A stretch of 64,000 bases of DNA from the NCBI RefSeq assembly GCF_045037415.1, contig NZ_CP173438.1. One strand, given 5' to 3'. Source of the stretch: Escherichia coli. Lineage in GTDB: Bacteria > Pseudomonadota > Gammaproteobacteria > Enterobacterales > Enterobacteriaceae. This document shows positions 56,401 through 59,400 of this stretch, piece after piece. The first letter of the stretch is position 1; every line of letters starts with the position of its first letter. Made by a program: the position numbers.

Positions 56401-59400
56401 GAAGAGATCTACCATCCACGGTAAGCCTACCGAAACCAGAAATCCCGCTACGCCGCAGAGAACGAATCGCCAGGACTGGCAGGAGATCACTTCATTGTGG
56501 CGGGTGGTCATGGTGTTGATCAGCGCGCAGTACGGTACGTTGATGGCTGTATAACCGACTGAAAGGAGCAGGTAAGTACCGAACGCCCAGGCGATTTTTA
56601 CTCCCATGCTGGCATCTGGCACGGTGAATGTCAGGATGCCGATAATGCCGATGGGAATGGCAATCCATAACTGCCACGGACGAAAGCGCCCCCAGCGACT
56701 TTGCGTCCGGTCGGCAATGACGCCCATCACCGGGTCGGAGATGGCATCAAACACGCGTAGCGCAATAAACAGCGTGCCAACCAGCGCCGGAGTTAAGCCA
56801 AAAACGTCGGTGTAGAAAAAGGTGAGAAAGTTCATGATCAGGCAAGTTATTACGGTGCCGCCTGCGTCACCCAGGCCGTAGCCTATTTTTTCCCGTACAG
56901 ATAACGCATCGTCAATTTTACCTTTAGCGATATCAGCGGTGGTAATCGGTGTAGAGGTCATAGATATTCCTCGTGAATAGGGAGCAATTTTTAGTTTTAT
57001 TGCAATGACCTGATTAATTCTGCCGTGAACGGGAATATCAACAAGGCGAGAAAAGAGTAAAAAAAGGTGACGATTCCGACCTGAATTTAAAAGTGTGAAA
57101 TGGATCAGGTGAAATTAATGTTTTTGATTAATAATCAAAAGGTAATGTGTTTAATCATTAATGAATAAGCGGGAAATTACATATCAATGCTCGAATTATC
57201 CATGACGTTACCGATTAAAGTGCAAAATGGTGGATTATTTATTTCCCGTGGCGTAGGGAGGCATCCTGCAAGGCGGCTGGAGTCATGGGAAATTATCTTC
57301 GTCGAAAAAGGTCGATTAACGATTCAGGAAGATGAACGGATATTTCTGGTCGATGCGGGAGAGAGTTTATTACTCTGGCCGAACCGACAGCATGTTGGGG
57401 TGGAGGATTTTCCCGCCGATCTCAAATTTTACTGGCTGCATTTTGAGGTTAAAGCGCCGGACAACGATCCGCGCTGGCTCACTCATCTTAGCGTGCCGCA
57501 ACAAACTAAGGTTGCCGATCCGCAGGTGCTGGTGGCCTTGTTTCGCCAGTTCTTAAGCGAACAGGAAAAGCATCAACGCACTCCGGCGCTGGAGTTTATT
57601 GTGCTGCTGATTTTGCAGCAGCTCACCCGTGACGCGCGTCTTGATGAACAGGCCGATGGTGCAGGCACCACCCTTGCCTGGAAAGCGCAGAAACTGATTC
57701 GCACGCAATATCACCGCCCGCTTTCCACGGCGCTTTTAGCCCGCGAGCTGTACTGCAATGCCGATTATCTTGGGCGCGTCTATCGGCGGGTGTTTCATCT
57801 GACGTTAACAGAAGCAATCCACCGCCAGCGGGTGCGCGAAGCCGAAAAGCTGTTAATTAGCGAAGCGCGATCGCTCACGGAAGTGGCGGCGTTGTGCGGG
57901 TTTAATGACGTCGGCTATTTCCGGCAGATTTTTCGCAAACACACCGGCTTAACGCCAGCAGCGTGGAAGCGGCGTTACAGCAAGGAACATATCAATTCGT
58001 AGTGCCGGGGCGATGAAGCCCCGGCGTGAGGGATTACTGCCCGTAATAGGCATTGGCCCCATGCTTACGCAGGTAGTGCTTATCCAGCAGTTCGTTTTGC
58101 ATCGCAGGGAGCTGTGGCGCAAGCTGGCGCGAGAACAGACCCATATAGGCGCACTCTTCCAGTACCACGGCGTTATGCACCGCATCGGCGGCATTTTTTC
58201 CCCAGGCGAACGGGCCGTGAGAATGCACCAGTACCGCCGGGATTTGTGCCGGGTTCAACCCACGCTCTTCGAAGGTTTTAATGATCACTTCGCCGGTCTG
58301 GTATTCATACTCACCGTTGATCTCTTCTGCGGTCATCAGGCGCGTGCAGGGGATGGCTCCGTAAAAATAATCGGCGTGAGTAGTGCCCCAGGCGGGGAGA
58401 TCAAGTCCGGCCTGCGACCAGATGGTGGCGTGGCGCGAGTGGGTATGCACTATGCCGCCAATCTCCGCAAAGCGACGGTAAAGCGCCAGATGCGTTGGCG
58501 TGTCGGAAGAGGGCTTTTTGCTGCCTTCCACCACCTTGCCGCTGGCTATCTCAACCACCACCATATCGTCGGCGGTCATTACCTCATACTCAACGCCGGA
58601 AGGCTTAATCACCATCCATTGCCGCGTTTCGTCTATCGCGCTGACATTGCCCCAGGTGAACGTCACCAGATGATGAACGGGAAGCGCCAGGTTTGCCGCC
58701 AGCACGTCAGCTTTCAGTTGCTCTAACATATAAATCCGGCCTCCTGCATACGCGCTTCAATCCAGCGCCGCGCCTGAATAATCTCCAGCACCGGCTCTTT
58801 GGCTTTTTCGGTCCACATCTCAATCAGGAAAGAACCGCGATAGTTCAGCTCATGCAGCGTTTTGAAGATGCCAACAAAATCGACACAGCCTTCGCCAAAC
58901 GGCACATCGCGGAACTGTCCGGGGCTATGTTCGGTAACGGGTTGAGTGTCTTTCAGGTGGATGGCGGCGATACGGTCGATGCCCAGTTTCAGTTCGGCGG
59001 GAACATCATTGCCCCAGGCGCTGAGATTGCCGACGTCCGGGTAAACGGTGAACCACGGTGACGCAAGCATTTCGTCCCACTTTTTCCATTTGCTGATAGA
59101 GTTCATAAACGCGGTGTCCATAATCTCCACCGCCAGCATGACTTGTGATGCCGCTGCCTGTTCAACCGCCCACGCCAGCCCTTCAGCAAACCGTTGCTGG
59201 GTGCCTTCGTCATGATCTTCGTAATAGACGTCGTAACCTGCCAGTTGAATAGTACGAATGCCGAGATCGCGTGCCAGGCGAATCGCTTTACTCATAATCT
59301 CCCGCGCCCGCTGGCGCACGGCGTCGTCCCGGCTACCAAAAGGAAAACGACGATGTGCGGACAGGCACATTGACGGAATAGCAACACCCGTTTCGAGCAT

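Follow-up and report, generated by a model that had tools for sequence, protein, structure and literature searches.

AraC-family proteins characteristically recognise asymmetric half-sites of 17-18 bp that abut the -35 hexamer of the target promoter. At PBAD and PRha the half-sites of the regulator overlap the -35 in part, and CRP binds immediately upstream of them (PMC11983282). The transcription of melR is wholly dependent on CRP, which binds over the -35 region, and MelR also regulates its own gene through a site overlapping the start of melR transcription (PMC2377442). The locus described here lies in a 64,000-nt stretch of Escherichia coli DNA (the window, in whose numbering all coordinates are given) and shares several features with these systems. 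As at melR-melAB, a gene for an AraC-family regulator diverges from an operon for a GPH-family symporter and a glycosidase, and as at melR a CRP-like site would cover the -35 region of the proposed regulator promoter, here with its centre about 40.5-42.5 bp upstream of the predicted start. The two loci differ in that the MelR sites and promoters have been mapped experimentally, whereas those of the present locus are predicted from sequence. They also differ in the order of their elements. At melAB, CRP binds between the MelR sites at about -81.5, whereas the CRP-like site of this locus is distal to the whole conserved block, at about -91.5. This position is close to those of CRP at rhaBAD and araBAD (-92.5 and -93.5, respectively); our literature search for the CRP position at rhaBAD found no paper. 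The succession of a CRP site, a regulator region of about 40 bp and then the -35 is likewise that of araC-araBAD and rhaSR-rhaBAD (PMC11983282). Unlike those loci, with their araI1/I2 and rhaI1/I2 repeats, no comparable repeat was recognised in 57045-57084 of this one.

An earlier, sequence-only reading of the window had drawn attention to two AT-rich palindromes just upstream of the regulator gene as candidate operators. We propose instead, at a probability of about one half, that the second palindrome is a product of chance, that the first formed around the -10 hexamer of the regulator promoter, that the CRP-like site is placed for class II activation of that promoter, and that the regulator binds the conserved block at 57045-57084. 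The locus is an ordinary CRP/AraC-type control region, an uncharacterised member of a well-known kind, and not a new operator pair.

The locus and the comparative data set

The gene context given by the sequence-only reading, an AraC-family regulator divergent from a symporter-hydrolase pair, was correct, the pair being a GPH-family sugar:cation symporter and a GH127-family glycoside hydrolase that form an operon on the minus strand (Table 1). The divergent intergenic region between regulator and symporter (56962-57186) is 225 bp long with 32% GC, falling to 24.5% in its right-hand 102 bp (57085-57186). The NCBIfam models for AraC, MelR and RhaS/R all scored far under their cut-offs on the regulator (38.6 bits against 253 for MelR and 60.9 bits against 208 for AraC), which is thus orthologous to none of these proteins. 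In the identical genome of SK1144, the three-gene module lies between aldB and sgbE/araD, and O157:H7 carries the module with other neighbouring genes. The intergenic region was found in 2321 of 5426 complete E. coli genomes (~43%), which makes this an accessory module. Literature searches on the locus, or on GH127 in Enterobacteriaceae, turned up nothing relevant, and an Rfam search of 56800-57350 returned no RNA family. The present analysis gives a testable map of the control region for an uncharacterised module that is carried by a large fraction of E. coli and by many other Enterobacterales.

Full-length orthologues of the regulator (58-93% identity) were present in 80 species across the Enterobacterales. 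The divergent arrangement with an alignable intergenic region of 215-383 bp was found in 76 further species, at one of which (L063) tblastn gave no GH127 match. All conservation counts below refer to these 76 regions and that of E. coli, 77 in total. Positions free of constraint were saturated with changes (~0.2-0.4 bit) and stood out from sharply conserved blocks, the mean of the region being 0.94 bit. The sequences, their conservation and the fixed spacings can be read directly from this alignment. The frequency with which palindromes arise by chance was obtained directly from 5000 dinucleotide-preserving shuffles of the whole intergenic region or of its AT-rich right part. Within E. coli, the region is ~98-99% identical among the sampled strains, and five divergent strains had 1-5 differing sites in the compared region, none of them inside either palindrome; variation at this level is uninformative about both.

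Table 1. Features of the locus in window coordinates. Promoter elements and protein sites are proposed.
Feature	Position	Strand	Description
GH127-family glycoside hydrolase gene	53577-55550	-	start set at the Met of MNISEVDL
GPH-family sugar:cation symporter gene	55561-56961	-	466 aa; TIGR00792 333.7 bits, over cut-off
AraC-family regulator gene	57187-58002	+	271 aa; ATG at 57187
Conserved block ATTCTG	57017-57022		alignment
Proposed symporter-GH127 -10, CAGAAT	57017-57022	-	predicted start near 57010
Conserved block CAACAAGG	57039-57046		1.81 bit
Proposed symporter-GH127 -35, TTGTTG	57039-57044	-	within a conserved block
Invariant 40-bp block	57045-57084	-	between CRP-like site and symporter -35; about -35 to -74
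Conserved blocks AAGTAnAAAAAG and GAyGATTCCGACCTGA	57053-57084		alignment
Conserved block AA-n-TGTGA-N4-GATC	57091-57106		alignment
CRP-like site	57091-57112		core 16-mer TGTGAAATGGATCAGG at 57094-57109; centre 57101.5
Palindrome 1	57122-57140		perfect 9-1-9 dyad TTTTGATTA-A-TAATCAAAA; at about -20 to -2 in the proposed regulator promoter
Conserved asymmetric core TnRTTAATAATCAA	57125-57138	+	alignment; 62/77 species
Conserved block TTAATAATCAA	57128-57138		alignment
Proposed regulator -10, AATAAT	57130-57135	+	predicted start near 57142-57144
Conserved base A57144	57144		alignment; invariant
Palindrome 2, TCATTAATGA	57155-57164		5-0-5 dyad in unconstrained leader region
Conserved AAGCGGGAA	57167-57175	+	conservation profile; 12 nt upstream of regulator ATG

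The CRP-like site

The partial CRP-like site mentioned in the sequence-only reading turned out to be its most strongly supported part. TGTGA and GATC are present at a fixed spacing in 77/77 species (by position, TGTGA, G57103 and the TC in 77/77 and A57104 in 76/77). The left half agrees with the CRP consensus (TGTGA-N6-TCACA) in 5/5 positions, is invariant, and has flanking AA bases that also match and do not vary. The right half is poor, being generally TC(G/C)(G/A)G rather than TCACA and reading TCAGG (3/5) in E. coli and TCGGG (2/5) in the consensus of the alignment, and over the whole CRP consensus 22-mer the site matches at 14/22 positions. The GATC forms a conserved Dam target.

The spacing of the site is fixed to both of the promoters proposed below, and its centre would lie at about -40.5 from one predicted start and about -91.5 from the other, both near canonical distances for activation (about -41.5, -61.5 or about -92). 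Because of this geometry and the catabolic context of the module, we consider CRP the likely binder. The invariance of GA in GATC, as judged from the alignment, is beyond what the preferences of CRP predict, and TGTGA-N4-GATC does not vary among the 77 species, which range from Escherichia to Pantoea and Hafnia. It is conceivable, but rather unlikely, that the invariant elements are something other than plain CRP and -10 signals. This sequence might then be what the AraC-family regulator recognises, or a composite site sensitive to methylation, with TnRTTAATAATCAA as the autoregulatory operator of the same protein. If that were true, the palindrome of E. coli would be a real, strengthened operator.

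The proposed symporter-GH127 promoter and the candidate site of the regulator

On the minus strand, a TTGTTG hexamer and the centre of the CRP-like site are 57.5 bp apart in 77/77 species. Exactly 16 bp from this hexamer, CA(G/A)AAT is found in 73/77 species and CACAAT in one more, giving a -10-like hexamer at 57017-57022 in 74/77, and the sequence of the 16-bp spacer between the two hexamers is unconserved. A promoter of the form TTGTTG-16-CAGAAT would drive the symporter-GH127 operon, with a predicted leader of 49 nt and the CRP-like site at about -91.5. An alternative symporter promoter with TATACT as its -10 (57061-57056, minus strand; 64/77) was rejected. The A that is essential at its second position would be 57060, the only base to vary in a block that is invariant apart from it (A in the clade of E. 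coli, but C or G in others), and the CRP-like site would fall at a non-canonical ~-52.5.

The block between the CRP-like site and the symporter -35 is sharply conserved, with 1.99 bit for ATTCCGAC, 1.89 for AAAAAG and 1.76 for AAGAGTA. It is neither AT-rich nor palindromic and it adjoins the symporter -35. By analogy with the known systems, 57045-57084 is probably the site of the AraC-family regulator, and a better candidate than the palindromes. The regulator would bind there and activate the symporter operon, in the manner of AraC at PBAD and RhaS at PRha. Inspection of 57045-57084 by eye gave no convincing half-sites in direct or inverted repeat. We infer the two promoters, the binding of CRP and the site of the regulator from the conserved sequences and their spacing. 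On this map the targets for mutation or footprinting would be 57045-57084, 57091-57112 and 57125-57138, and not the AT-rich palindromes.

The proposed regulator promoter and the conserved core

On the side of the regulator gene, AATAATCA (57130-57137) is invariant at the aligned position in 62/77 species, that is, in all of those that have the element. Around it, T57125 is present in 58/62 and T57128 in 59/62, A57138 is nearly invariant, 57127 is any purine and 57126 is free (C27/G16/T15/A4). Mixta has the heptamer ATAATCA as well, and in Mangrovibacter it is found at a shifted position. AATAAT, which is contained in this core, matches TATAAT at 5/6 positions, among them the second-position A and the final T. 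When the 77 regions were scanned for -10-like hexamers (at least 4/6 matches, including these two bases), AATAAT at 57130 (60/77) was the sole plus-strand hexamer present in at least 50% of species in the whole intergenic region, and in 60 species it stands a constant 28.5 bp away from the centre of the CRP-like site. On this pattern of conservation, AATAAT is most likely the -10 of a sigma-70 promoter of the regulator gene itself. A lone -10-like hexamer in AT-rich DNA would be weak evidence for a promoter, and the argument depends on its conservation.

No conserved -35 was found for the proposed regulator promoter. Its place would be taken by the CRP-like site at about -40.5 to -42.5, a class II arrangement like that of melR. 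The centre would be at -40.5 if the hexamer occupies -12 to -7, and starts at 57143 and 57144 would put it at -41.5 and -42.5, respectively. A scan of 56900-57260 for consensus sigma-70 promoters and terminators gave no site at the thresholds applied. This result is not counted against the proposed promoters because it is expected where promoters are activator-dependent. We judged it unlikely that the minus-strand hexamer GATTAT (57136-57131; 60/77) is a -10, as it is without a conserved -35 and transcription from it would read through the CRP-like site.

The core is absent from about 12 species, and in these the CRP-like site, the 40-bp block and all other conserved blocks are kept. Buttiauxella and Cedecea have a -10-like hexamer, TACACT, further downstream, and Mangrovibacter, which is without the core at the aligned position, has CATAAT-CA, also with its -10-like hexamer further downstream. 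The presence of an alternative hexamer together with retention of the other blocks is what would be expected if the element serves the regulator promoter only. Conservation extends past the hexamer, however, to the CA(A) that follows it, to T57125 and T57128 that precede it and to the invariant A57144. This greater length suggests a further protein contact.

A less likely possibility is that the core is mainly the site of a transcription factor overlapping the regulator promoter, either autoregulatory, like MelR site R and araO1, or belonging to another repressor. The dyad of E. coli would then be incidental or a strengthened form of a degenerate two-fold site. The conservation beyond the hexamer (AATAATCA, T57125, T57128 and A57144) fits such a site, the element would occupy -20 to -2 in the predicted promoter, which is a classic position for a repressor, and the autoregulation of MelR provides a precedent (PMC2377442). 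A dyad-like form, TTnATTAATAATCAA (at least 6/7 positions complementary), is also found in 26/62 species, and it is on this account that we retain the alternative. However, a large clade (Klebsiella, Raoultella, the C. freundii group and Kluyvera) has ATCGTKAATAATCAA, with a complementarity of only 3-4/7. Nothing like the core recurs in the invariant block by the symporter promoter, a block that this regulator would be expected to bind, and the element is missing from species that retain every other conserved block. Another possible sign of a shared site, the repeated 8-mer TGATTAAT (at 57011 and 57125), is limited to the E. coli/Citrobacter group and was rejected as a shared motif.

The two palindromes

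Both palindromes, like the CRP-like sequence, were confirmed in the window at the coordinates stated, TTGATTA-A-TAATCAA at 57124-57138 (49-63 bp upstream of the regulator ATG) and TCATTAATGA 23-32 bp upstream of the same ATG. The first is longer than the 7-1-7 that had been described, and is a perfect 9-1-9 dyad. Palindrome 2 is at chance level, since perfect palindromes with arms of at least 5 occurred in 39-52% of shuffles. Arms of at least 7 were found in 4.5-5.5% of shuffles, and palindrome 1 is locally unusual because arms of at least 9 appeared in just 0.3-0.4%.

Palindrome 2 lies in the least conserved stretch of the region, with a mean of 0.18 bit. In E. whittamii, the closest sister species, the corresponding sequence is TCTTCACCAG, in which 5/10 positions are mutated, and barring one unrelated palindrome no counterpart was found in 65 other orthologous regions (0/65). 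The absence of changes in palindrome 2 within E. coli is uninformative because the strains are so nearly identical throughout the region. From this distribution, palindrome 2 is judged to be a chance 10-mer that is specific to E. coli. The conserved AAGCGGGAA just downstream of it may be a distant Shine-Dalgarno sequence or another site.

The left arm of palindrome 1 varies across the 62 species with the core, whereas its right arm and centre do not. All pairs of the 7-1-7 dyad are intact in 10/62 species and all those of the 9-1-9 dyad in 4/62. The 7-1-7 form is spread over about four separate lineages (Escherichia/C. amalonaticus, Enterobacter, Yokenella and Kosakonia arachidis), a recurrence that exceeds what is predicted for a purely neutral left flank. 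In the alignment, palindrome 1 is thus a lineage-specific dyad formed around a conserved asymmetric element, and the symmetry itself is not conserved. More generally, -10-like sequence in promoter DNA can give rise to perfect AT-rich dyads as a by-product.

These results do not uphold the proposal that both palindromes are operators of a dimeric factor, of AraC type or other, that controls the divergent promoters, and we now regard it as highly improbable. Both dyads are perfect in E. coli and the first is rare in shuffles. They also lie within a 23-nt direct repeat, D1 (57116-57138 and 57143-57165), the copies of which are 78% identical and 27 bp apart. However, palindrome 2 and the second copy of D1 are unconstrained and lost in the sister species, and it is the asymmetric element and not the symmetry of palindrome 1 that has been retained. 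A spacing of 27 bp would place the D1 copies on opposite faces of the helix. Furthermore, the palindromes are ~112-154 bp upstream of the predicted symporter start, whereas the half-sites of AraC-family proteins abut the -35 (PMC11983282). D1 was also considered as a pair of AraC-type direct repeats and rejected, as its second copy is unconserved and is mutated in E. whittamii. No motif common to the palindromes or D1 and to 57045-57084 was seen by eye.

Known sites of other DNA-binding proteins were compared with palindrome 1 and its surroundings. Sites of the FNR/CRP family (TTGAT-N4-ATCAA) have the same TTGAT and ATCAA arms as palindrome 1, in which the spacer is 5 bp. An FNR site was rejected, as the spacer at 57124 is N5 and not N4 and the left arm is variable. 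The Fur box (GATAATGATAATCATTATC) has the heptamer ATAATCA in common with the conserved core. The best match to it in the region is 12/19, a score equalled in 37% of shuffles, and it is without an iron-related context, so that a Fur box was rejected as well. No match to an IHF site was found in the region.

That matches to Fur-like and similar AT-rich motifs are at chance level would be compatible with a more general role for the AT-rich 100 bp that includes both palindromes, as a non-specific target of nucleoid proteins (H-NS-type silencing) in which the dyads have no sequence-specific role. The low GC content of 57085-57186 and the accessory nature of the module would suit such a role. We consider it quite unlikely, as AT-richness fails to explain eight invariant bases kept at a fixed distance from the CRP-like site in 60 species, amid AT-rich positions that are saturated with changes.

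Across the 64-kb window, eight perfect palindromes have arms of at least 7, against ~7.8 expected under equal base use. Three of the palindromes in the window have 9-bp arms, and the two besides palindrome 1 sit within long ORFs, so that such dyads also arise without an operator role.

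Conserved elements in the divergent intergenic region

Across the 77 species with an alignable orthologous intergenic region (E. coli and 76 others), AA-n-TGTGA-N4-GATC of the CRP-like site is identical in all (77/77). TGTGA and the GATC, a target of Dam, are equally invariant. Beyond the GATC, the right half does not resemble that of a CRP site. Methylation may play a role at this GATC, and the site may be bound by a protein other than CRP. A useful contrast to this half-consensus site is provided by two perfect CRP 16-mers in the window, TGTGAGTAATGTCACA and TGTGATCTGAATCACA, both upstream of a 637-aa minus-strand ORF that is taken to be mtlA from its size and neighbours.

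In the conserved block, the proposed regulator-binding region, a single base varies and the rest is invariant. At 57056-57061 the sequence is AGTATA in most species, which reads TATACT on the minus strand, and AGTAAA in the clade of E. coli, C. amalonaticus, C. sedlakii and S. diarizonae. The element AAGCGGGAA is also conserved and bears a loose resemblance to AAGGCGAGAAAAG (consensus AAGGGAAGGGAAAAG) within the conserved block. It lies 12 nt 5' of the regulator ATG, rather distant for a Shine-Dalgarno element. The window holds two further perfect palindromes with 9-bp arms, both within long ORFs.

Positions of sequence features in the window
Feature	Position	Context
AA-n-TGTGA-N4-GATC	57091-57106	CRP-like site
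AGTATA/AGTAAA	57056-57061	variable base 57060
AAGCGGGAA	57167-57175	upstream of regulator
AAGGCGAGAAAAG	57043-57056	conserved block
TGTGAGTAATGTCACA	43201-43216	upstream of ORF 41027-42940 (-)
TGTGATCTGAATCACA	43246-43261	upstream of ORF 41027-42940 (-)
TTAATGACAGTGTCATTAA	5948-5966	ORF 5734-6669 (+)
ACATCCTGATCAGGATGT	8442-8459	ORF 7792-8811 (+)
Regulator-symporter-GH127 module with its neighbours	51772-58729	between aldB and sgbE/araD
GH127 frameshift	53577-53600	extreme 3' end

Genomic setting of the module

The neighbours of the module vary between strains. In the window and in SK1144, an E. coli genome with an identical copy, it is flanked by aldB on one side and sgbE/araD on the other. 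The annotation shows no yiaT-yiaW between these genes, where they would be expected from the K-12 gene order. Between yiaY and aldB, SK1144 additionally carries a gene of the Fic family. At the O157:H7 locus the module is flanked by yiaT and a remnant IclR-family gene adjoining ysaA, and no yiaK-S genes are annotated there.

Relative to the O157:H7 ATCC 43890 copy, the GH127 gene of the window is frameshifted, and its last six residues therefore differ (TSAIRR versus KHCHP in ATCC 43890). This change is probably harmless. The identical SK1144 copy is labelled 'frameshifted' in its PGAP annotation.
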